Of a stretch of DNA of 37,227 nucleotides, positions 8,063 to 37,227 are shown one piece after another (position 1 is the first letter of the stretch; each line of letters begins with the position of its first letter). A program made the position numbers and the translations under genes. A model generated the notes under the pieces. The model was given only the letters and a program-made list of their open reading frames with translations, did no database searches and was not told the DNA's origin. This stretch comes from a virus. The stretch is from the IMG/VR virus record IMGVR_UViG_3300029955_000077; one strand, 5' to 3'.

Positions 8063-8136
8063 GCCTCCATCGGCAACTGGATAGTCAACATCGCTTCGAA
8101 CGATGATTAGTGTAAGATCGTACCTTACTGGGGGCA
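8063..8136 (+). tRNA. tRNA-Arg (anticodon UCG)
   Basis: Acceptor GCCTCCA/TGGGGGC, anticodon stem CATCG/CGATG with loop CTTCGAA, T-loop ATCGTAC (A at position 54), CCA encoded. Confidence 0.5.
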
Positions 8137-8144
8137 CCAAGTTT

Positions 8145-8372
8145 ATGAAGATTAATTTTCGAGGACAAATGGTCGAAGATAGGTCTGGTATAGACGAAGA
8201 TAAACAGTATCGTTGTACCGATTGTGGGAAGGTGACATTTGGTAAAGATTTATCTTTAGTTTCTTACCAAACTTCAATGGAAGTAAGGGGAGAACTTGTT
8301 CCTACAGGAGAAATGGTAATTAACACTCGTCTGTGTCCCGAAGATAGAGGACATGTAGTAGAAGAGATTTGA
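8145..8372 (+). CDS. zinc-ribbon protein (75 aa)
   Basis: ATG after the tRNA (the track ORF starts inside the tRNA). Motif CTDCGK...CPEDRGH. Confidence 0.45.
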   Translation: MKINFRGQMVEDRSGIDEDKQYRCTDCGKVTFGKDLSLVSYQTSMEVRGELVPTGEMVINTRLCPEDRGHVVEEI

Positions 8373-8376
8373 TTTT

Positions 8377-8460
8377 TGTGGAGTAAACCGTAATTGGCAG
8401 CGGGCTGCACTGTTAATGCAGTGTCGTAAGACTCTGGGGGTTCGAGACCCTCCTCCACAG
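8377..8460 (+). tRNA. type-II (long variable arm) tRNA with anticodon GUU. The body is Tyr-like but the anticodon is that of Asn.
   Basis: 84 nt. Acceptor TGTGGAG/CTCCACA, anticodon stem CTGCA/TGCAG with loop CTGTTAA, 14-nt variable arm with a GTC/GAC mini-stem, T-arm GGGGG-TTCGAGA-CCCTC, CCA encoded. Confidence 0.5.
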
Positions 8461-8469
8461 CCAAATTTT

Positions 8470-8559
8470 AGCGCTCCGGTAGAACAGGTGGGTCTTCAAC
8501 TCCCTTAGCTAGTTCATCGGTAAACACTCTTCGGGGTTGAAGCCGGGAGTAGCAGCGCT
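8470..8559 (+). ncRNA. long imperfect hairpin, possibly a structured RNA element
   Basis: AGCGCT...AGCGCT bracket an inner CTTCAAC(T)CCC / GGGGTTGAAG stem, followed by AAAAATTTTTA. Confidence 0.2.
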
Positions 8560-8681
8560 AAAAATTTTTATTGGGACGTAGGAAAACCGGCAACCCCACT
8601 GGGTTCTGACCCCAGCGACCAATTTGGTCACTGCATGTTCAAATCATGCCGTCCCAGCCAAAAATGATATTTAACGATTAT

Positions 8682-8753
8682 TCCTGCGTAGCTCAGGGGC
8701 AGAGCGAACGGCTGTTAACCGTTTGGTCGGTGGTTCGAATCCATCCGCAGGAG
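8682..8753 (+). tRNA. tRNA-Asn (anticodon GUU)
   Basis: Acceptor TCCTGCG/CGCAGGA, D-arm GCTC-AGGGGCA-GAGC, anticodon stem AACGG/CCGTT with loop CTGTTAA, T-arm GGTGG-TTCGAAT-CCATC, CCA encoded. Confidence 0.75.
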
Positions 8754-8834
8754 CCAAATTTGGGTCAGGAGGTCGGCGGTCTCGTACCCGATCTTCCCGT
8801 ATACTGTACGCCTTCGGGCTACAGGCAGATGACG

Positions 8835-8872
8835 GGTGTAGCTCAGTAGTAGAGCACCTGATCTAATTTACT
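8835..8872 (+). pseudogene. tRNA 5' fragment (acceptor and D-arm only)
   Basis: GGGTGTA-GCTC-AGTAGTA-GAGC resembles the 5' half of the following tRNA-like gene. No matching 3' half follows. Confidence 0.3.
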
Positions 8873-8960
8873 TTGAGCGAGTTACGTGGAAGGCAACTTT
8901 GTTCATGGAGGGCAACGACCAAAGCGACTCGCTCAATAAGTTTTGAAGTTTGAAGTCATG

Positions 8961-9031
8961 ATACACGTAGCTCAATTGGTAGAGCAGCGCCATTAACGGC
9001 GCTGATGTGGGTTCGATCCCCACCGTGAGGA
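8961..9031 (+). tRNA. tRNA-like gene or pseudo-tRNA with an atypical anticodon loop
   Basis: D-arm GCTC-AATTGGTA-GAGC, T-arm GTGGG-TTCGATC-CCCAC. The anticodon stem GCGCC/GGCGC encloses a 6-nt loop ATTAAC. The acceptor pairs weakly (ATACACG/CGTGAGG) and no CCA is encoded. Confidence 0.3.
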
Positions 9032-9111
9032 AGGCTTCTTGGGAGAAGATAGACACTTGATCAGTGGACCGTTTCGTGAAATCCTTCAATCCCACCGGTT
9101 TTAGAAAGTTT

Positions 9112-9184
9112 GCGTTGGTAGCTCAATTGGCGGAGCACTCGACTCTTAATCGATAGGCTGTGGGATCGTTGCCCACCCAGCGCA
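9112..9184 (+). tRNA. tRNA-Lys (anticodon CUU)
   Basis: Acceptor GCGTTGG/CCAGCGC, D-arm GCTC-AATTGGCG-GAGC, anticodon loop CTCTTAA, T-arm GTGGG-ATCGTTG-CCCAC, CCA encoded. Confidence 0.6.
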
Positions 9185-9228
9185 CCAAGATTTAGGAATT
9201 GATTATAAGCCAGTAAGCGTGTATTATT

Positions 9229-9381
9229 ATGATTGACCCAAATCATCTCTACACTTTGCATCAGACATACACAGGAACTGATTGTGCTTTGTGCGGGAAG
9301 CCAGCGACAGAGCATCCATTAGAGTATTGGATGATTAACGGTAAACAACAAGAATTAGTTAGAATTCATATTGGGGAATGA
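9229..9381 (+). CDS. small CxxC protein (50 aa)
   Basis: ATG ORF with CALCG. Its 3' end overlaps tRNA-Phe by 9 nt. Confidence 0.25.
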   Translation: MIDPNHLYTLHQTYTGTDCALCGKPATEHPLEYWMINGKQQELVRIHIGE

Positions 9382-9445
9382 GCTAGTAGGGTTATAGCGT
9401 TCCGCTGAAGACGGAAAGAATCCAGTTCAACTCTGGGATTCCCCA
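9373..9445 (+). tRNA. tRNA-Phe (anticodon GAA)
   Basis: Acceptor GGGGAAT/ATTCCCC, D-arm GCTA-GTAGGGTTA-TAGC, anticodon stem TTCCG/CGGAA with loop CTGAAGA, T-arm TCCAG-TTCAACT-CTGGG, CCA encoded. Confidence 0.7.
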
Positions 9446-9545
9446 CCAAATTTAAAAAGGAGAAGTAAAATGAACTACATGAATTTAAAACAGGAGGTAC
9501 AAAATATGCATACTCATTAAGATACTGCAAAGGAGCGGTAGAACT

Positions 9546-10361
9546 ATGCGCCCAGACATGGCCAAACTCCTCACTGAAGCTGAGAGGTACGGTTCAAAAA
9601 ACCGATCTCAGAAGTGGGGTAAGCGGTTCAAATATAACCCTGATTCGGACTACGATGATCAACCATATCGTGCTTCGATGTCCCGACATCGGCAAGATGA
9701 CTGCGGGAAAAACCTTAGCGATGTACTCAACCCATTAAAGGGTTATCTCCACAAAAGCGTGGGACGCCATTGGGATGATGTCTACAGTGAAATTTGTCAA
9801 AACCTTGATCGTCGTAGTGTAACTGGATTACATGTATTCACTCATCTTTGGCAATTCGTAGCCAAAAATACTGTGATGTGCATTGACGGAAAGGTACGAG
9901 AATGGGCCGGTGGTGGCGGCTATTTGACTGAGCCCTATAATTATTATATCCACCCATATACCGGGATTTTGTGCGACAGTGGGTACAGCGGATGGCGCGA
10001 ATGGCGGCGCAGCAATCGCACCAGGAAAGAAAAGCCCGTCACCGAGATTCGACTTTCGGACATCGGGCGTTACGAGAAGTTCGACGGCATCTGGTACTAC
10101 TGCGAGAACTACGCTATCAAGCACGAGGGCAAGACGCTGATTCGTCCGGGCTATTTCCGGGTCAATGACGCCATCAAGATCGATGGCGAAGTCAACGAGG
10201 AAGGCGAGCCCTTGGTTTTTTACTTAATCAAATGGACTGAGCACATCAGCACGAAACGCCAGCTTAACCGGAAAGAACTGAAAAAAGCAGGATTGAAAAA
10301 TGACCCTCCGAATCCTAAAGCTTTCAGCAGACGGGAACGAAAGGCTTTGGAGAGAAAGTAA
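9546..10361 (+). CDS. hypothetical protein (271 aa) with a compositionally mosaic C-terminal half
   Basis: Long ORF. The segment at roughly 9960-10215 is markedly more GC-rich than the N-terminal half. Confidence 0.6.
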   Translation: MRPDMAKLLTEAERYGSKNRSQKWGKRFKYNPDSDYDDQPYRASMSRHRQDDCGKNLSDVLNPLKGYLHKSVGRHWDDVYSEICQNLDRRSVTGLHVFTHLWQFVAKNTVMCIDGKVREWAGGGGYLTEPYNYYIHPYTGILCDSGYSGWREWRRSNRTRKEKPVTEIRLSDIGRYEKFDGIWYYCENYAIKHEGKTLIRPGYFRVNDAIKIDGEVNEEGEPLVFYLIKWTEHISTKRQLNRKELKKAGLKNDPPNPKAFSRRERKALERK

Positions 10362-10430
10362 GTATTAGGGGGTATGAGCAGAATGCAAAATGTTTTAGGC
10401 TTTTAGACTCCTTAGAAAGGAAGGTAAATT

Positions 10431-10976
10431 ATGGCAGACACTTTAATTCTTGACCAAAACTGGCAACCACAGTCTTTTTGTAACTGGCAGAACGCTGTGA
10501 AATTGATATATGAAGGGCGTGCTCAAGTTATCAAAGAAGACGAGGGTGGGCGCATTTTACGGTCTCCTTCTCTGGAATGGAAGATGCCAAGGGTTATTGT
10601 TGTCAAAAACGCTTGGGTTCGTAGGAAGCGTTTGTCCGTTCCTTTCTCCAGACGCAACATCGCGGTTAGGGATAATAGCGGGTGTCAGTACTGCGGTAGG
10701 GTATTGAAGACTCAGGAATATACTCTTGACCACGTAATGCCTCGTTCTCAAGGTGGTGTATCTTCATGGACCAATTTGGTGCTCGCCTGTGTGCGCTGCA
10801 ACAAGCGTAAGGCCGGTCAGACACCTAAGGAAGCTGGCATGCACTTACTTAAGCAGCCCGTGGAGCCGAAGAAGGACGATCCGAAGTACAACTTCAAGCT
10901 TCACATTAACAAGCTACGGCCAGAATGGAAAGAGTGGGAAACCTGGCTATATTGGAATGTGGAACTAGAAGCGTAG
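10431..10976 (+). CDS. HNH endonuclease (McrA-like)
   Basis: GGAAGG Shine-Dalgarno site. Motif CQYCG...LDHVMPRSQGG...NLVLACVRCNKRK. Confidence 0.8.
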   Translation: MADTLILDQNWQPQSFCNWQNAVKLIYEGRAQVIKEDEGGRILRSPSLEWKMPRVIVVKNAWVRRKRLSVPFSRRNIAVRDNSGCQYCGRVLKTQEYTLDHVMPRSQGGVSSWTNLVLACVRCNKRKAGQTPKEAGMHLLKQPVEPKKDDPKYNFKLHINKLRPEWKEWETWLYWNVELEA

Positions 10977-11074
10977 AAGCTTTGACACGATCCTTTACGT
11001 GTCACATCTGGTCCCGGATGTGCTGACCCAGCTTAAAGGGTAGGGACTACCAATTTATGAACGGAAGTTGAGCC

Positions 11075-11148
11075 ATCCTCGTACCGGCCTCGTTTCCTAA
11101 ACGAGTAACCGTAAAGGAGCAATGTGGGTTCGAGTCCCACCGAGGATA
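11075..11148 (+). tRNA. tRNA-like element with a CCU anticodon-like hairpin and no canonical D-arm
   Basis: 74 nt. Perfect acceptor ATCCTCG/CGAGGAT, T-arm GTGGG-TTCGAGT-CCCAC, CCA encoded. A CTCGT-TTCCTAA-ACGAG hairpin sits where the D-arm should be, followed by an 18-nt extra segment. Confidence 0.3.
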
Positions 11149-11158
11149 CCAGGTTTTT

Positions 11159-11333
11159 ATGTACATCAAATGCAGCATATTCGATGTGGATTTGGATCAT
11201 GTATTTGATGAGCTGCTTTTGCAGTTGACAGAAATAACACTTCCTGATACACTGGAACTTGATGATCGAAAGATAGATAATCAAGAAGATTATAAACTAC
11301 GAGAGTATTTATTGAAGGCTACAAAATAAGCAT
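11159..11333 (+). CDS. possible small acidic protein (58 aa)
   Basis: ATG ORF whose stop lies inside the start of the dispersed repeat. The Shine-Dalgarno site is weak. Confidence 0.2.
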
Positions 11334-11547
11334 TGAAGGTCTTGCGAAAACCAAGCTGGCTAAATCAATGCTGGATGTTGCATTCGGGAAATAAGAATTA
11401 AGAATTCTCGACGCCTTGGGATACATGGAGTCGTTAAACGACTGCGGACAGTGTGTAAGTCTGGCGAAAGCCAGCAGCGCTGGTTGAAACAGTTAAGGGC
11501 GGCGTTAGCCGCCTAGAATCTCCCGCCTTTAGGCGTGGGAGTATCAA
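11314..11547 (+). repeat. dispersed structured repeat, copy 1 (234 bp)
   Basis: About 85-90% identical to 36408-36620, with two small insertions. It contains conserved hairpins GTCG-TTAAA-CGAC and GGCGGC-loop-GCCGCC. Confidence 0.8.
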
Positions 11548-11631
11548 TATGATGGTAATTCTTAACAACACGCTCACCACGCTTCACCTCAGACCTAAAC
11601 GCTAAATTTCCGCGTTCAAAAATCTCTAAAT

Positions 11632-11703
11632 GCCTCTATCGTCCAACTGGAAGGGCACCGGCCTTCTAAGCCGTGGATCCGGGTTCAAGTCCTGGTGGAG
11701 GTA
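11632..11703 (+). tRNA. tRNA-Arg (anticodon UCU)
   Basis: Acceptor GCCTCTA/TGGAGGT, D-arm GTCC-AACTGGAA-GGGC, anticodon loop CTTCTAA, T-arm CCGGG-TTCAAGT-CCTGG, CCA encoded. Confidence 0.65.
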
Positions 11704-11717
11704 CCAAAAATTTTAAT

Positions 11718-11790
11718 GCCCCCGTAGCTCAGTTGGTAGAGCCACCGCCTTTTAAGCGGAGGGTCGCTGGATCGTTCCCGGCCGGGGGTA
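11718..11790 (+). tRNA. tRNA-Lys (anticodon UUU), copy 1
   Basis: Acceptor GCCCCCG/CGGGGGT, D-arm GCTC-AGTTGGTA-GAGC, anticodon loop CTTTTAA, T-arm GCTGG-ATCGTTC-CCGGC, CCA encoded. Confidence 0.65.
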
Positions 11791-11799
11791 CCAAACTTT

Positions 11800-11872
11800 G
11801 GGTGTATCGTCTAATGGCTAAGACCCCGATCTTTTAAATCGGCCGATTTCGGTTCGAGTCCGAATGCACCCA
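11800..11872 (+). tRNA. tRNA-Lys (anticodon UUU), copy 2
   Basis: Acceptor GGGTGTA/TGCACCC, D-arm GTCT-AATGGCTA-AGAC, anticodon stem CCGAT/ATCGG with loop CTTTTAA, T-arm TTCGG-TTCGAGT-CCGAA, CCA encoded. Confidence 0.7.
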
Positions 11873-11961
11873 CCAAATATTCTACTTGACAAATTCCCTT
11901 AAAACCTCTTAAAGTAAAAATAGGTAACCGAAACCTCGTCAGACCAACCGGAGATGTTTTA

Positions 11962-12473: not shown

Positions 12474-13790
12474 ATGATGAAAAAAGAAATGACCCTTTTG
12501 GGTCTAGTCGCCGCTACGTATTTTATGGTAAGCGGAGGCCCGTACGGTCTAGAAGACCTAATTGCTCAAACTGGTTACGGATGGGGAATACTCATTCTTT
12601 GCTTAGTGCCCTTCCTGTGGGCACTGCCAACCGCTATGATGGTTGGTGAACTCGCCTCTGCGATACCGAATCGCGGGGGTTTTTATATTTGGGTGCAACG
12701 TGCCCTTGGAAAATTTTGGGGATTCCAGGAAGCTTGGCTTTCATTAGCGGCTTCCATATTTGATATGGGAATCTACCCGCTACTTTTTATTTCTTACCTG
12801 GGTGTATTGGCTCCAAGTTTCACCGCAGGGTGGCACGGCTCGCTTATAGCAACGGCTCTAATCGCTGTTTGCGTATTGTGGAACCTTCGGGGTGCCAAAG
12901 CTGTAGGAAACGGCTCTGTGGCGTTAGGAGCCCTTATGGTGAGCCCTTTTGTGATTATCACCCTAGCAGCTCTCCGACACGCCCATCTGACCCATGTTAC
13001 GGGTCATCCTCACGCCGTCAGTCTTATGGGCGGTATTATGGTCGCTATGTGGAACTTCATGGGTTGGGATAACGCCAGCACCATAGCCACAGAAGTCAAA
13101 AAACCTCAACGAACCTACCCCATCGCCATGATGGTGACTATGCTGTTGATTGTTGGAAGCTATATTCTCCCCGTAGCAGCGTCTTGGTATCTGGGAGTAC
13201 CCCTGTCTGCCTGGTCAACAGGGAGTTGGGCGACTATTGGTGAAATCATCGCGGGTTCTTGGGTACGAGACGCCATTGTACTGGGTGGAATGATCAGTGC
13301 AGCGGGGATGTTGAACTCCCTCATGATGAGCTATTCTCGTATTCCCCCAGCGCTGGCTGAAGATCATTATCTGCCTCGCATATTCACAAAAATAAATGCA
13401 GTGTCAGTTCCCATGATAGCTTTATTTGCCTTGGCGACAGTTTGGGCAACAGCGTTCGGTTTGAATTTTGACCGTCTGGTGATGCTGGATATTTTACTTT
13501 ATGGAACGAGTCTTATTCTGGAGTTTATCGCTTTAGTGGTATTGCGTTGGAAAGAACCAGATTTGCCTCGACCTTTTCGTGTGCCTGGGGGAAAATTGGG
13601 CGCTATCTTGGTAGGAGTTTGCCCAACGATACTTCTCTTCGCGGCCGGTATTTTTGGGGATCATAACGGACTATTGCTAGGCTTAGGCATGATTCTATCC
13701 GGGGTGGGTGCTTGGTGTGGAATTCATGGATTTCGTGCCGCTAAATATGAAAAAATCGCTCCCACTTTCTCAACTACCACGATCCCCTAA
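12474..13790 (+). CDS. APC-family amino-acid/polyamine permease (about 12 transmembrane segments)
   Basis: Hydrophobic throughout. The GGPYGLE and GELASAIPNRGGFYIWVQRALG motifs are typical of APC transporters. AAAGG Shine-Dalgarno site. Confidence 0.75.
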   Translation: MMKKEMTLLGLVAATYFMVSGGPYGLEDLIAQTGYGWGILILCLVPFLWALPTAMMVGELASAIPNRGGFYIWVQRALGKFWGFQEAWLSLAASIFDMGIYPLLFISYLGVLAPSFTAGWHGSLIATALIAVCVLWNLRGAKAVGNGSVALGALMVSPFVIITLAALRHAHLTHVTGHPHAVSLMGGIMVAMWNFMGWDNASTIATEVKKPQRTYPIAMMVTMLLIVGSYILPVAASWYLGVPLSAWSTGSWATIGEIIAGSWVRDAIVLGGMISAAGMLNSLMMSYSRIPPALAEDHYLPRIFTKINAVSVPMIALFALATVWATAFGLNFDRLVMLDILLYGTSLILEFIALVVLRWKEPDLPRPFRVPGGKLGAILVGVCPTILLFAAGIFGDHNGLLLGLGMILSGVGAWCGIHGFRAAKYEKIAPTFSTTTIP

Positions 13791-15553: not shown

Positions 15554-15777
15554 TGGTATTATTATGGTATATGAATATGAATTTCACTGGATTCATGCAA
15601 GTCATTCCTAAGCCCACGCACTGGTGGCGGCGTCCACACCAAATACATTTTTCTTTGTGGCCAGCTTGGCTAGCTCAAGCATTATGCCCGCATAAAGTCA
15701 AAACTTATTTCACTGATGATCAATGGCGCTGTGATGATTGTTTCAAATTCAATTTCCATCAAAAGGAAGACAAATAA
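15553..15777 (+). CDS. hypothetical small Cys/His protein (74 aa)
   Basis: ORF whose stop overlaps the next start in a TAATG arrangement. Confidence 0.4.
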   Translation: MVLLWYMNMNFTGFMQVIPKPTHWWRRPHQIHFSLWPAWLAQALCPHKVKTYFTDDQWRCDDCFKFNFHQKEDK

Positions 15778-16871
15778 TGATTCACTCCCTTATTTCGGTT
15801 ACAGAATCTACATCAATAGAAAGACGAAAAAATAATGTTATAGGTGCAGTTTTTGGACAAGCCATTGGCGATGCTATAGGACATCCGGTGGAGTTTAAAA
15901 AAACTCATTATGTTGTAGACCTAGATATCCCCAATCAATTTACAGATGACACACAAATGTTTTGTGCTTTGGGTGAGGCGTTAATTGAAGGGAAACCCCA
16001 TGAAATGGAAGATGTATTCATGGATGTTCTTACTAAGAAGTTTGTTGAATGGCGTACAAATCCTTTAGGCGGTAATCATCGTGCTCCAGGGGGTACTTGT
16101 ATGGAAGGAGTTCGAAAATTAGGTGCAAAAGTTCCTTGGACAAAATCTGGAGCTCTAAATGGTAAAGGTAATGGAACGGCGATGCGTAGCGGTGTCGTAG
16201 GGGCGATGTACTGGAAGAATCCTAATTATGCTTTTCGTATAGGAGCTTTGCAAAGCGTCAACACCCACAATAATCTAGAAGCGATATTAGGCGGGGGAAC
16301 AGTTTCTTATCTTGTAGCAGCGGCTATTAATGGTATGAGGTTTTCTATCGCCATATCAAATGTTTTGATGCTCTGTTCTCAATTTCTTAATCCATCTGTT
16401 ATAGCTACTTATCCTCAAAATGTAGCATTCAATGATCTGCGTAAAGGTCAGAGTCCGTGGAAAACCGTAGCAAAATTCGGCTCCGCATTTGCGTTGGGTA
16501 TCTCAGATATACAGGTCGGTGAATTCGCTAAATTCAATGGAGATGATTTTTCTGTAGTGCCAGCGGTATCCGCCGCTATTTTTTACAATACTAGATTCGC
16601 AAATTCAGGTTATGAACAAACAGTGTTAAACGCCGCCAATTTTGGAGATGACGCGGATACTATAGCAGCTATTAGTGGGACTATCGCCGGAGCTAGACAC
16701 GGCGTGGATGGTATACCTACATCATGGGTAGAGAATATCGAACAAAGTGAGTACCTCAGGGATTTCTCAGACCGTTTATGGGAAGCCAGTCTTGCCGCAA
16801 ATGTAACTGTTGATAATGAAACTCCAGTTGACACGGATAGTCTACTGGATATGGATGAAATCGAATTTTAA
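15777..16871 (+). CDS. ADP-ribosylglycohydrolase (ARH/DraG family)
   Basis: AAGGAAGA Shine-Dalgarno site. Motifs GAVFGQAIGDAIGHPVEF, TDDTQM and GDDADTIAAISGTIAGARHG match the ARH-family hallmark motifs. Confidence 0.8.
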   Translation: MIHSLISVTESTSIERRKNNVIGAVFGQAIGDAIGHPVEFKKTHYVVDLDIPNQFTDDTQMFCALGEALIEGKPHEMEDVFMDVLTKKFVEWRTNPLGGNHRAPGGTCMEGVRKLGAKVPWTKSGALNGKGNGTAMRSGVVGAMYWKNPNYAFRIGALQSVNTHNNLEAILGGGTVSYLVAAAINGMRFSIAISNVLMLCSQFLNPSVIATYPQNVAFNDLRKGQSPWKTVAKFGSAFALGISDIQVGEFAKFNGDDFSVVPAVSAAIFYNTRFANSGYEQTVLNAANFGDDADTIAAISGTIAGARHGVDGIPTSWVENIEQSEYLRDFSDRLWEASLAANVTVDNETPVDTDSLLDMDEIEF

Positions 16872-21233: not shown

Positions 21234-21370
21234 CCGAATCCAGTCAACACCCACTAATTCACATGCCACCTTGTAGGGCCCCGTACATACGACCTAAGCA
21301 CAAGTTTACTCTGAGCATCAAAACTTTCCCGGTTATAAGTTGTTGATTTTAAATACTTTAAAAATATCCA

Positions 21371-21396
21371 TTTTCAGTGTTTCCGATGTATACTAG
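21371..21396 (+). promoter_or_regulatory. ttttcagtgtttccgaTGTATACTAggg promoter motif
   Basis: Near-identical to the sequence at 24347-24370 and related to 4244-4260. Confidence 0.5.
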
Positions 21397-21409
21397 GGAT
21401 GGAGGCGAT

Positions 21410-22315
21410 ATGACAAAGAAAAGTAGCTCTGATGTGGCGGCTGATTTGAAAAGTGCAATGGGTTCCGCTGCCGATGCAAAGACTATTCTCGATACACCAG
21501 ATAAGAAAACCGCCAGCCGTTCCACATGGAAGGGTTATATTTCCGCTTTTGGCGTTATGCTGATTCCCGCCGCAACCCTGAAAGCCACTGATGTTGATGC
21601 TATCGAAACCCACATGTACCATAGCGCTGCTTGTCCGAATCGTTTGGTGCAGAAATACACCTGCTCTTGCTGCGACACCGAAGTCCCCAACGCTCGTACA
21701 AACGCCCTTAAGGGTGTAGAAGTGGGGGACAAAGTCATTACTCTCACTCAAGCGGAATTAGACGCTCAGAAGCCCACTAGTGACAAAATTCTCAAAGTCA
21801 CCGAGTTTGTTCCCGCTGATGCGATTGATGTTACCTACTACGAATCCAGCGAATACATCGCCGCTGATAAGGGTGGGGAAAAAGCCTTCGCCACATTCCA
21901 GCAAGCCTTGGCGCAAACGGGGCGTATCGCTATCGGCACCTTCGTAAGCCGCGGTCACCAATACACTGTTGCACTTCGCCCCAAGGGTCAGTATGGTATC
22001 GTCATGTCTTATTTGTTCGCGGAATATGAAGTTCGCAACTGCGGCAAGTGGACGCCTGTTGTTGTCAATCCGGCAGAAGTTGATTTGGTCAAGCAGCTTA
22101 TGACTGAAACCGAACTGGCAAAAGAAGTATTCACCCCCGCCGCCTATGACCCCTATCTCTCTGGCGTGCGCAAGATGATTGCTGCTAAGGCAAATGGTAC
22201 GGAAGTTTGCACCCCGGCTGCGGACGAAGTTCCCAAGGCTACGGATGATTTGTTGGCGGCGTTGAAAGCTACCCTGGAGCAGCAAAAGGCAAAGGCTGCA
22301 AAGGCTGGTGTATAA
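21410..22315 (+). CDS. ku: Ku-like DNA end-binding protein
   Basis: GGAGG site 4 nt before the ATG. WKGYISAFGVMLIPAATLKAT, EFVPADAIDVTYYESSEYIAAD and QQALAQTGRIAIGTFVSRGHQYTVALR parallel the conserved blocks of bacterial Ku. Lys/Ala-rich C-terminal tail. Confidence 0.8.
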   Translation: MTKKSSSDVAADLKSAMGSAADAKTILDTPDKKTASRSTWKGYISAFGVMLIPAATLKATDVDAIETHMYHSAACPNRLVQKYTCSCCDTEVPNARTNALKGVEVGDKVITLTQAELDAQKPTSDKILKVTEFVPADAIDVTYYESSEYIAADKGGEKAFATFQQALAQTGRIAIGTFVSRGHQYTVALRPKGQYGIVMSYLFAEYEVRNCGKWTPVVVNPAEVDLVKQLMTETELAKEVFTPAAYDPYLSGVRKMIAAKANGTEVCTPAADEVPKATDDLLAALKATLEQQKAKAAKAGV

Positions 22316-22433: not shown

Positions 22434-23108
22434 ATGACAATCTACTATAAACTCACGACGCAAGAAGGAAAGACTCGTAATGAAACTCAATGGGGAGAGA
22501 ATGTAACTCATGAGGCTACGGGAGACATTAAACAAGACTTGTGCTCCAATGCATGGATACATGCGTACACTCATCCCCTACTCGCTGTGCTTATGAACCC
22601 GGTTCATGCAGATATAGAGAATCCCATCCTTTGGGAAGGAAAGGGAGAAGGGGAGGCAAAATTCGAACCCCTTAAATGCGGGTTCAGGAAATTCACTACC
22701 CTAAAAAAAATCCCATTACCAGAAGTAACTGATGTTCAAAAGGTAGCCTTTGGTATTCTCTGTGCTAAAGAAGTTTACAAAGACTCAAGTTGGAATCAGT
22801 GGGCAGATAAATGGTTAAGCGGGGAAGATCGCACTAAATCTTCTGCTAATGCTGCTGCTGATGCTGCTGCTTATGCTGCTGCTGCTGCTGATGTTGTTGC
22901 TTATTATGCTGCTAATGCTGCTGATGCTTATGCTGCTTCTGATGCTGCTTCTTCTGCTGCTAGGGCTGCTGCTAATGCTGCTTATGCTGCTGCTAATGCT
23001 GCTGATGCTTATGCTGCTTCTGATGCTGCTTCTTCTGCTGCTTCTAAAGCTACGGGCAAAGAATTAGATTTTGTTTCGATTGCCCTTAAAGCCATGGAGG
23101 GGAAATGA
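22434..23108 (+). CDS. hypothetical protein with a C-terminal Ala-rich imperfect repeat region
   Basis: AAGGAG Shine-Dalgarno site. GCT-rich imperfect tandem repeats at 22840-23050 encode the motif AANAADAYAASDAASSAA. Confidence 0.6.
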   Translation: MTIYYKLTTQEGKTRNETQWGENVTHEATGDIKQDLCSNAWIHAYTHPLLAVLMNPVHADIENPILWEGKGEGEAKFEPLKCGFRKFTTLKKIPLPEVTDVQKVAFGILCAKEVYKDSSWNQWADKWLSGEDRTKSSANAAADAAAYAAAAADVVAYYAANAADAYAASDAASSAARAAANAAYAAANAADAYAASDAASSAASKATGKELDFVSIALKAMEGK

Positions 23109-23770: not shown

Positions 23771-23922
23771 TGCCCCAACAATGGGAGAGATTACCCCCAG
23801 ATGAAGAAGCAGGAACCCCTGCTTTGTTTCCCCCAGAATCAGACCTTTGCAGAGAATGTGACGGCACCGGAGTGCTGTATGGACAGCTCTGTAAAAAATG
23901 TGGCGGCAAAGGGGAAATTTAG
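23770..23922 (+). CDS. small zinc-finger protein with a DnaJ-like CxxCxGxG motif (50 aa)
   Basis: TAATG overlap with the previous stop. Motifs CRECDGTG and CKKCGGKG. Confidence 0.4.
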   Translation: MPQQWERLPPDEEAGTPALFPPESDLCRECDGTGVLYGQLCKKCGGKGEI

Positions 23923-23954
23923 CCAAAACCCGTGTTTTGGATGTATACTAAGGT

Positions 23955-24326
23955 ATGAGCCCATCTCAGGAACGAGTCTATTTGGACGCTGAGCGAGAAG
24001 AAGGCATCGCTGAACTTCGTAACGACCCCGCGTACAATTTTGCGGAGCCAGAGTGCATAGTTCCCTCAAAATATCATCAATACTTCGTTGACTACGGGCG
24101 CTGCTTGTATGACAAGCTCCCGCTTCGCCAAGAAATGCACGCGTTCAATCACTACAAAAAATTTCACTGGCACAAGTACCCTCGATACCTTGCGTACCAG
24201 GGCGGTACTTGGCATGAAGTTTCTATAGGTGCTTATTTGGCTGCGAAGTTTGGTCATTTAATTCCCGTCGCTATCGTCCACGATCCTAAAAAACCGAAAA
24301 ATAAACGTGCAAAGGCTGTAAAATAA
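23955..24326 (+). CDS. hypothetical protein (123 aa)
   Basis: Preceded by TGTATACTAAGGT, which looks like a promoter plus Shine-Dalgarno site. Confidence 0.55.
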   Translation: MSPSQERVYLDAEREEGIAELRNDPAYNFAEPECIVPSKYHQYFVDYGRCLYDKLPLRQEMHAFNHYKKFHWHKYPRYLAYQGGTWHEVSIGAYLAAKFGHLIPVAIVHDPKKPKNKRAKAVK

Positions 24327-24375
24327 AAGGGTTAGAAAATATCCATTTTCAGTGTTTCCGATGTATACTAGGGAT

Positions 24376-24576
24376 ATGGCAAAGAAAAAAAAGAAAAAAA
24401 GTAGCTCTGACATGGCGGCTGATTTGAAAAGCGCATTGCAGTCGTTAAACAAGATGATTGGCTATGCAAAATACGTCGAAGAAATGGATTGGTGGTATTT
24501 CAGGGAAGAAGTGCAACCGGGTTGGAAAAATGATTTAGCGGAAGCCGAAGCTATTGCGGCAAAGTTACACACTTAA
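24376..24576 (+). CDS. hypothetical small protein whose N-terminus duplicates the Ku N-terminus
   Basis: A copy of the 21371-21396 promoter lies upstream. The first ~20 codons (KKKKKKSSSDMAADLKSAL) parallel Ku's TKKSSSDVAADLKSAM. Confidence 0.5.
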   Translation: MAKKKKKKSSSDMAADLKSALQSLNKMIGYAKYVEEMDWWYFREEVQPGWKNDLAEAEAIAAKLHT

Positions 24577-36150: not shown

Positions 36151-36189
36151 AGCTTACCAAAAAGCGGCGTAAAGCCCCTGCCTTCAGGC

Positions 36190-36270
36190 ATGGGATAGAT
36201 TCGAACCCCCACACCGGTCTAGGGAGCGGATTAACAGTCCGCAGCTCTCACCAATGAGCAGCCGTCACCA
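36190..36270 (-). pseudogene. minus-strand tRNA-like fragment (D-arm plus GUU anticodon arm)
   Basis: The reverse complement reads GCTC-ATTGGTGA-GAGC followed by GCGGA-CTGTTAA-TCCGC. The T-arm (GGGGG-TTCGAATC-TATCCC) does not pair and there is no matching acceptor 3' strand. Confidence 0.25.
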
Positions 36271-36362: not shown

Positions 36363-36392
36363 TTGACAGTATATCGCAGGTTGTGGTATATT
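36363..36392 (+). promoter_or_regulatory. sigma70-like promoter TTGACA-18-TATATT (with TGg extended -10)
   Basis: Consensus -35. It lies immediately upstream of repeat copy 2. Confidence 0.55.
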
Positions 36393-36407
36393 TCTTGTAT
36401 GGCACTC

Positions 36408-36620
36408 GAAGGCTACAAAATAAGCATTGAAGGTCTTGCGAAAACCAAGCTGGCTAAATCAATGCTGCATTCGGGAATTCTCGTCGCCTCGGGATACGTG
36501 GAGTCGTTAAACGACTGCGGACAGTGTGTAAGTCTGGCGAAAGCTAGCAACGCTGGTTGAAACAGTTAAGGGCGGCTTTGCCGCCTAGAATCCCTCGCCT
36601 TTAGGCGTGGGGAGTATCAA
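36408..36620 (+). repeat. dispersed structured repeat, copy 2 (213 bp)
   Basis: Homologous to 11314-11547. The hairpin stems are conserved while the loops differ (GGCGGC-ttt-GCCGCC here versus a gtta loop in copy 1). Confidence 0.8.
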
Positions 36621-36666
36621 GCTATGAAAACTGGGCATTTGGAGTTTCTATTTCGGTGAGACGACT

Positions 36667-36846: not shown

Positions 36847-37227
36847 TACTTGACTTTTGGTATTCTATATGAGACAATGTTTTTAGGTTAAGCCTGCGGA
36901 ATAACGCTATTCGCCCTGGATGGAGAAACAACCCGATGGGCAAAGGGTGTGAATAACCCACTTGCATAGTGCCGCAGCCCCCACTTACGCCCCTGTATTC
37001 ACCGGGGATGAAAGACGCAGGGGGTAACAATTTTAGGTTTACTGGTCGCATAAGGATCGACAAAAACCGCAGGGCTAGACTCCTTGTGGCACAAATCGGT
37101 CGCTCGTCTAGGAGAAACCGGTTCCTAAGAATCGGCGATCAGTTTTTAAAGAAGTGACGGCGCAGGAATAATGGCGCGGAATCGTGGTCGTAAGCAGCCG
37201 AAGGAGTGTCCTGGCAGCGAATGGATA

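Follow-up and report, generated by a model that had tools for sequence, protein, structure and literature searches.

What is the structured repeat that lies in the transfer RNA (tRNA) island of the viral DNA stretch IMGVR_UViG_3300029955_000077 and recurs near its far end? The whole stretch of 37,227 nucleotides, referred to here as the window, carries two direct repeat copies, copy 1 at 11314-11547 and copy 2 at 36408-36620, on which repeat search, alignment and a covariance model agree. An earlier note on this DNA, made from the sequence alone, had taken them for a small non-coding RNA family or a cis-regulatory or replication-associated element of unknown class. We assign a probability of about 0.9 to a different identity, namely that each copy is a non-autonomous derivative of one and the same IS608-like insertion sequence (IS) of the IS200/IS605 family, internally deleted but with the omega-RNA scaffold of the nuclease TnpB retained. 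The structured RNA module of the earlier note is then real, while its class would be a known one, the TnpB omega-RNA scaffold together with the transposon right end.

The two copies are closely similar and share a reading frame. The repeat search returns two collinear families, D2 and D5 (11314-11376 with 36408-36470, 98%, and 11402-11506 with 36475-36579, 94%), which MAFFT joins into one repeat across the 21-nt gap between the families. Global alignment of copy 1 with copy 2 gives 204 matches, 8 mismatches and 23 gap columns (7 + 14 + 1 + 1), corresponding to 96% identity over aligned bases and to 87% with gaps counted, in line with the 85-90% first estimated. The accompanying claim that short indels destroy any common frame is contradicted by the alignment, as the large indel (7 + 14 = 21 nt) is in frame and both 1-nt indels lie downstream of a shared TGA (11485-11487 and 36558-36560). 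By tblastn and translation, the same tnpB-derived frame is present in both copies; it is broken in copy 1 by an in-frame TAA within the 21-nt segment and is open in copy 2, where it forms a 53-codon tnpA'-'tnpB' fusion open reading frame (ORF).

Further copies in related phages reveal where this frame comes from. The most conserved part of the repeat, the 22-mer GTCGTTAAACGACTGCGGACAG, matches nine IMG/VR contigs (contigs are denoted here by L numbers), and in six of the nine the last ~150 nt of the repeat is preceded by coding sequence, ...CGYKNNNLSLSDREWTCPACG..H.RDGNASLNLKAEGIRILDALGYMESLNDCGQCVSL..., that resembles a TnpB C-terminus. L003 holds a complete tnpB ORF of 396 amino acids (aa) at 8959-10149 on the minus strand, with the domains OrfB_IS605 (7.7e-21), Cas12f1-like_TNB (2.3e-17) and HTH_OrfB_IS605, and the TnpB of the relatives aligns end to end with the ISDra2 TnpB structures 8H1J, 8BF8 and 8EXA (E = 2e-65). 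In L001, L003, L008 and L011 the homologous 150 nt overlaps the last ~29 tnpB codons and runs to TCAA, and the flanks differ straight after it. The earlier note had itself pointed to a coding gene in related genomes, of which the repeat would be the conserved 5′ part, as the outcome that would speak against a free-standing RNA; essentially this is what the relatives contain, except that the repeat is the 3′ part of the gene.

A comparison of L011 and L015, near-identical full copies with differing flanks on both sides, defines the boundaries of the intact element, which measures 1743 bp including TTAC and is ordered TTAC, left-end hairpin, promoter, tnpA, tnpB, right-end hairpin and TCAA. The left end is intact in L002, L007, L044, L011 and L015; between L011 and L015 similarity begins with TTAC, followed across the boundary by CGAGAAAGCGCCGTAAAG-CCCCTGCC-TTTA-GGCATGGGG, with the guide tetranucleotide AAAG immediately 5′ of the hairpin. 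The tnpA promoter of L015 reads TTGACA-18-TATAGT, and the tnpA gene encodes 133 aa that start ATGGCACTAGAAGGCTACAAATCG and match Y1_Tnp (1.1e-42). The right end reads ...CCCCG(AA/GA)TTTAT(T/C)CGTGGGG-AGTATCAA, where the element stops. By its sequence the element is built on the IS608 plan: insertion lies 3′ of TTAC, the left hairpin directly follows AAAG, both hairpins are imperfect and contain an unpaired T, and the right end is cleaved after TCAA. IS608 itself has the target TTAC, the right-end TCAA and the guide GL = AAAG (PMC3201880).

Every segment of the window copies can be placed on this element. Matches of tblastn are to TnpB aa 277-298 and 368-396; therefore, what the repeat represents is a remnant of tnpB in which the 3′ end is kept while codons 1-276 and the zinc-ribbon (TNB) region are missing. 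A cis-regulatory or replication element is not supported. The internal fragment of copy 1 is 82% identical to aa 277-298 of the L003 TnpB (tblastn, 11326-11391) and 88% to IS 1321-1386 (blastn), and its 3′ part is 86% identical to aa 368-396 (tblastn, 11398-11484) and aligns with IS 1588-1743 (blastn). In copy 2, IS 1599-1743 matches 36477-36620 by blastn and TnpB aa 368-396 match 36477-36557 by tblastn. The copy 2 unit also extends to the left of its reported start, 36408, which falls inside the first seven tnpA codons: IS 100-133, comprising the -10 element, the ATG and tnpA codons 1-7, corresponds to 36386-36419 (blastn), with the ATG at 36399 and the promoter at 36363-36392. Both copies end in CCCGCC-TTTA-GGCGTGGG(G)-AGTATCAA, and their similarity to all relatives, as in every family member, stops exactly after TCAA (GTATCAA). 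TnpB guide RNAs are encoded across the tnpB 3′ end, and the guide begins right after the right-end boundary of the transposon.

The junction of tnpA codon 7 to tnpB codon ~276 is common to copy 1 and copy 2, and the two therefore descend from one deletion derivative. An ancestral deletion would have fused these codons, and a second would have taken out the zinc-ribbon (TNB) domain, codons ~299-367. The surviving last ~150 nt would represent the omega-RNA scaffold region of the RNA-guided nuclease TnpB in the intact IS, and the final hairpin with TCAA the right end that the transposase TnpA would bind on single-stranded DNA. The junction 21-mer GGCTACAAAATAAGCATTGAA is also found in the viral contigs L002 and L007 and in the metagenome contigs L042 and L044-L048. 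L002 and L007 are of the shorter copy 2 type, L044 and L045 are of the copy 1 type with the extra 21 nt, and all have an intact TTAC and left end, so that by sequence they appear to be complete mini-elements (TTAC, left end, promoter, omega-RNA, right end) resembling the gene-less IS605 derivatives called PATEs (palindrome-associated transposable elements). Independent derivatives also occur: in L039, from a Terracidiphilus metagenome-assembled genome (MAG), the left end and promoter are joined directly to tnpB codon ~338, the same tnpB point at which L010 is cut.

The last ~150 nt fold into a conserved RNA structure that is common to deleted and intact copies. The covariation alignment comprises 11 distinct 150-nt modules, taken from both window copies, mini-elements, full-length elements and L025, a relative by a TnpB of 59% identity; it is a small set, and the divergent L025 supplies many of the changes. 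RNAalifold places 40 pairs in six helices on these sequences, with pair-keeping changes on both sides in 17 of the 40. The consensus structure is paired in 98.8% of cells, a share that falls to 33-47% when partners are slid by 1-3 columns, and the covariation measured on the real alignment is not attained in any of 500 column shuffles. Against dinucleotide shuffles, copy 1 and copy 2 also fold better (z = -3.5 and -2.7).

The hairpins singled out in the earlier note are present in both copies as helices 2, 5 and 6. The compensatory variation ascribed to them holds for the structure overall, but helix 2 (GTCG-TTAAA-CGAC) has no compensatory support, is broken in L025 and may reflect the coding sequence for ESLND. 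The consensus has three further helices: helix 1 (GATAC/GTATC) closes the structure by joining its 3′ end to its 5′ part, helix 3 is an enclosing helix, and helix 4 is capped by a GNRA loop. Helix 6 is at the same time the right-end hairpin for TnpA; the left-end hairpin copies it closely, and left-end hairpins are picked up as partial matches to the covariance model. With this model the window yields just the two copies, scoring 172 and 178 bits; the match to copy 1 covers 11399-11547, with a structured core at ~11420-11545 and a last hairpin at 11519-11539 that doubles as the TnpA-binding right-end hairpin. In L036, L020 and L021 the model also matches weakly, in each case precisely at the 3′ end of a distantly related tnpB gene, as expected for an omega-RNA. 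The codon 277-298 piece was considered as a further conserved RNA hairpin (AGCATTGA/TCAATGCT) and set aside as too weak, with one compensatory T-A to C-G change in L011 and the pairing lost in L025.

Features of the two repeat copies and of the separate left-end fragment in the window (IS positions refer to the intact element).
Feature	Position	Strand	Basis
Copy 1, tnpA stub, codons 4-7, GAAGGCTACAAA	11314-11325	+	12/12 match to IS 122-133 (L011)
Copy 1, internal tnpB fragment, codons ~277-298, RuvC-II region ISIEGLAKTKLAKSMLDVAFGK, ending in in-frame TAA	11327-11391	+	tblastn, blastn
Copy 1, tnpB 3′ end (codons ~368-396) and non-coding tail to TCAA, putative omega-RNA scaffold	11393-11547	+	tblastn, blastn, covariance model
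Copy 1, flank 3′ of TCAA, guide position if the RNA is made	11548-11567	+	divergence after GTATCAA; guide role putative
Separate IS left-end fragment: TTAC (36154-36157), AAAG, hairpin CCCCTGCC-TTCA-GGCATGGG	36154-36194	+	90% to IS 1-42
Foreign tRNA-Asn(GTT)-like gene with long variable arm, cut in the T-loop at the left-end junction	36197-36268	-	Rfam tRNA, partial, 25 bits
Copy 2, tnpA promoter TTGACA-18-TATATT	36363-36392	+	consensus scan 11/12, TG-extended; homologous to the intact-element promoter
Copy 2, tnpA start and codons 1-7, ATGGCACTCGAAGGCTACAAA, translation MALEGYK	36399-36419	+	alignment to intact tnpA start
Copy 2, internal tnpB fragment, codons ~277-292, 21 nt shorter than in copy 1	36421-36466	+	blastn to IS 1321-1366, 91%; tblastn 36420-36479
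Copy 2, tnpB 3′ end (TGA 36558-36560) and right end to TCAA, putative scaffold and right-end hairpin	36472-36620	+	covariance model, 178 bits
Copy 2, flank 3′ of TCAA, would-be guide	36621-36640	+	L002 diverges here from L007 and the window; guide role putative

The two copies differ in what they have retained. Copy 1 lacks the left end, the tnpA promoter and the start codon. The sequence TTGACA-17-TACACT at 11225-11253, cited in the earlier note as a weaker promoter for this copy, is recovered by a consensus scan; it falls within a 56-codon ORF, unrelated to the element, whose frame continues into the repeat. Because it has neither a left end nor a promoter of its own, copy 1 is most likely an immobile fossil. 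The consensus promoter reported for copy 2 is real and conserved; what it represents is the tnpA promoter of the transposon itself, now positioned before a deleted element. The surroundings of copy 2 are a patchwork, in which the separate left-end fragment is probably a relic of a further IS copy, since the tRNA-Asn-like gene that abuts the fragment is complete in the metagenome contig L046 (366-451; ARAGORN and alignment), which has no such fragment. This gene is the only minus-strand tRNA-like gene seen, the rest of the window lying on the plus strand.

A conditional model follows for copy 2, which, judging by its promoter and scaffold, probably still makes an orphan omega-RNA. Transcription from the tnpA promoter would yield an RNA of ~220 nt plus flank, consisting of a complete scaffold and then a guide copied from 36621 onward. 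Such an RNA would need a cognate TnpB in trans, from a full-length element of the host or from a co-infecting phage, and would otherwise be inert. Homing and retention are a known role of TnpB. Here, the complex would cut TTAC-flanked copies of the flank, that is, genomes without the element at this site, which would amount to vacant-site homing or retention; the predicted target is TTAC followed by GCTATGAAAACTGGGCATTT. The closest chromosomal TnpB proteins are encoded in Acidobacteriota MAGs (identities of 59% and 52%; the L039 fragment reaches 88%), which indicates that the host is probably an acidobacterium in peat.

Several observations weigh against this account. No cognate tnpB is present in the 37-kb window, as judged by tblastn with two TnpB proteins and by Pfam on 15 ORFs including all of at least 350 aa; the L003 TnpB matches only the two repeat copies. 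Read in the relative L023, the ORF just past the window end encodes a 408-aa N6/N4 DNA methylase and not TnpB. For the two closest phages, with contigs of 58 kb and 76 kb, only the mini-element is matched and no TnpB of this family is found; the source of TnpB in trans is therefore hypothetical. Copy 1 has no left end and the body of copy 2 lies ~150 nt of foreign DNA away from the nearest left-end hairpin, so that neither copy is clearly mobilisable. As most of the covariation comes from full-length elements and L025, it does not demonstrate selection on the RNA after the loss of tnpB. Probes from the left and right flanks find no empty site in IMG/VR and match only known loci. No terminator-like site follows either copy, and transcription of copy 2 is predicted from the consensus promoter.

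Nor does Rfam recognise the module. No Rfam family corresponds to the repeat at gathering thresholds or at E <= 10: across the whole window only tRNAs pass the gathering threshold, and around the copies at E <= 10 the sole overlapping match is RAGATH-9 (14.7 bits against a threshold of 75.2), with none for copy 2. The designation as omega-RNA accordingly draws on position, homology to TnpB-linked copies and covariation. The candidates suggested by a phage tRNA-island context, namely a group I intron, GOLLD/ROOL, Y RNA and a retron msr/msd, find no Rfam support either. A BLAST search of the INPHARED phage collection in distant mode with copy 1 and its flanks yields no similar DNA.

Among other explanations, the one that survives best is a domesticated orphan guide RNA, by which the phage would keep the omega-RNA to redirect the TnpB of a host or competitor, for example against rival phages without the element, or as a decoy, by analogy with phage RNA anti-CRISPRs. 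We regard it as very unlikely. It could account for the strong tnpA promoter kept directly before the scaffold, for the presence of the mini-element in several phage contexts, and for the independent L039 and L010 derivatives, in which an upstream piece, made up of the left end and promoter in L039, directly abuts the tnpB 3′ end and omega-RNA; however, selfish PATE-like elements predict the same pattern, and an omega-RNA favours retention. A G-U to U-A change that keeps helix 4 paired between the window and L046, at the same locus, would fit it as well, but gene conversion by full-length copies can also explain such helix-preserving changes. No partner TnpB is known, and the loss of promoter and left end from copy 1 resembles decay. 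In the window, neither putative guide (a 16-mer for copy 1; copy 2) has a second match, the guides finding only themselves. That the phage lineage maintains the promoter-driven, protein-less omega-RNA as a weapon in trans, a guide-only gene drive that would borrow TnpB from full-length elements of the host or of co-infecting phages and cut rival genomes without the element at this site, or as a decoy that titrates TnpB, is likewise improbable, if not negligibly so. Were it true, the exact-boundary rearrangements of L002 and L007 would be footprints of breaks induced by omega-RNA and TnpB.

The proposal of the earlier note, by which the repeat would have no link to mobile DNA and would be a free-standing small RNA or a cis-regulatory or replication element of unknown class, is favoured by the fold scores, the upstream promoter and the lack of an Rfam match. 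Yet each repeat segment is collinear with an intact tnpA-tnpB element, the repeat end is the TCAA cleavage site of the transposon, and copies at the 3′ ends of intact tnpB genes have the same conserved structure, which together leave this proposal only a slight chance. Least credible of all is a small protein gene expressing the 53-aa fusion peptide of copy 2, MALEGYKISIEGLAKTKLAKSMLHSGILVASGYVESLNDCGQCVSLAKASNAG, from a leaderless mRNA, for although all three deletions of the copy 2 type are in frame, the ORF spans the tnpA ATG to the tnpB stop and the ATG lies 6 nt past the -10 hexamer, copy 1 and copies of the L044 type have an in-frame TAA, five of six in-frame substitutions between copies alter the amino acid, the pieces come from three unrelated protein regions, and conservation runs 60 nt beyond the stop to TCAA.

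From 36370 rightward to its end, the window matches L007 at 99% identity, and to the left the two are unrelated, the breakpoint lying inside the tnpA promoter. L002 and L007 share a 5.7-kb stretch of 99.7% identity that stops with the last right-end base (TCAA), past which they are unrelated (L002 10105; L007 reverse complement 6000). The mini-element thus marks mosaic junctions, which may have arisen by homologous recombination, TnpA activity or TnpB-induced breaks. It occurs in 4-5 contexts, and the flank patterns A-X, A-Y and B-X together with the breakpoint at 36370 fit recombination as well as transposition. As direct repeats of 96% identity 25 kb apart, the two window copies are themselves substrates for homologous recombination. 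A second, unrelated TnpB (347 aa; OrfB_IS605 and TNB) adjoins a truncated copy of the studied family in L001 (2464-3507); phages of this group carry several TnpB lineages.

Comparison with known systems places the window copies at a decayed end of this class. Gene-less IS605 derivatives (PATEs) often encode omega-RNAs that need TnpB in trans (Meers et al., bioRxiv 10.1101/2023.03.14.532601). PATEs, for example those related to ISGst1 and ISGst5 of Geobacillus stearothermophilus, are like the window copies gene-less derivatives of tnpA/tnpB elements, with transposon ends and, in many cases, an omega-RNA still in place. Complete mini-elements of this kind are present in the relatives L002, L007 and L044, whereas the window copies are more decayed, copy 1 being without a left end and copy 2 being split from one by the truncated tRNA gene. 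PATEs reside in a bacterial chromosome, while the window copies reside in phage genomes from peat metagenomes and retain in-frame scraps of tnpA and tnpB. With IS608 of Helicobacter pylori, the prototype of IS200/IS605, the intact element shares the TTAC target, AAAG immediately 5′ of the left hairpin, ~18 nt from TTAC, TCAA a few nt past the right hairpin, imperfect hairpins with an unpaired T, and the order tnpA then tnpB. The two differ in that their nucleotide sequences are unrelated, that the foot of the right hairpin lies 10 nt from the cleavage site in IS608 and 8 nt here, and that the likely hosts here are Acidobacteriota or their phages.

The layout of ISDra2 TnpB and its reRNA is also shared, with a ~150-nt scaffold over the tnpB 3′ end to the right end and a guide from the flank. 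In contrast to ISDra2, the RNA module in the window is orphaned from its protein, and its sequence is not alignable by Rfam models. The adjacent motif also differs, being predicted as TTAC for the family here; the transposon-adjacent motif of ISDra2 is TTGAT. TldR guide RNAs (PMC10705468) offer a further parallel as a phage-borne guide-RNA system of the TnpB family, TldR proteins being nuclease-dead relatives of TnpB. TldR loci have retained the protein gene beside their guide RNA, which is directed at a promoter of the host; in the window such a gene is absent, and the only match of the guide region is its own flank.

The remainder of the window is phage-like, with 15 tRNAs, an HNH endonuclease, Ku, methylases and a SNF2 helicase, and with its genes all on one strand. 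The tRNA island at 7017-11875 comprises 15 ARAGORN calls, among them four different Arg isoacceptors, two unusually long tRNAs (Asn-GTT and Gln-CTG, of 87-89 nt) and a call with a 2-nt 'anticodon' (8961-9031); near-duplicate tRNA pairs form the repeat families D4 and D6, and the HNH endonuclease gene (10431-10976) lies within the island. Just upstream of it are an 826-aa ORF (1684-4164) with a Major Vault Protein shoulder (3.6e-26) and Vault_3 repeats and, as the next gene, an RlaP-family (RNA-repair-pathway) nucleotidyltransferase (4441-5274). A vault-protein homologue is unusual for a phage-like genome. Auxiliary-looking genes encode an amino-acid permease (12474-13790; AA_permease_2, 7.9e-46), an ADP-ribosylglycohydrolase (15738-16871; 4.2e-50) and a Ku homologue (21377-22315; 2e-29).

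Two other repeats are of a different kind. A ~60-nt box, AAAATATCCATTTTCAGTGTTTCCGATGTATACTAGGGAT..., stands before paralogous gene starts at 21361-21422 and 24336-24397 and, more weakly, at 23916-23977 (repeat families D3 and D7); 40 nt of it recur at 100% identity in an otherwise unrelated region of L002 (11917-11956), and it is probably a phage-specific promoter or regulatory box. A GCT-rich coding repeat of 9-/12-nt periodicity (22815-23073; 17 overlapping copies) lies in a 224-aa ORF (22434-23108) and encodes Ala-rich low-complexity sequence. At 36850-37227, the promoter-like TTGACT-17-GACAAT is followed by a GC-rich, ORF-poor stretch that runs off the window end, and whose counterpart in the relative L023 precedes a DNA methylase gene and a second tRNA cluster. 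To the eye this stretch looked structured, but it was rejected as a structured RNA, since its fold does not surpass that of shuffled sequences (z = -0.45) and Rfam offers no match.

What appeared to be a structured RNA of unknown class in a phage tRNA island is best read as a decayed IS200/IS605 element, and a false lead is thereby removed. The analysis documents an IS608-like tnpA-tnpB family that circulates between Acidobacteriota and their phages in peat soil, with a predicted TTAC adjacent motif and an omega-RNA consensus that is absent from Rfam, and its deleted members provide natural minimal cassettes in which a tnpA promoter is fused to a putative omega-RNA. In addition, a breakpoint at which near-identical phage genomes have been rearranged falls precisely on the right end of the transposon. 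The remaining interest of the locus lies in this exact-boundary breakpoint and in an orphan guide RNA that may be active in a phage.

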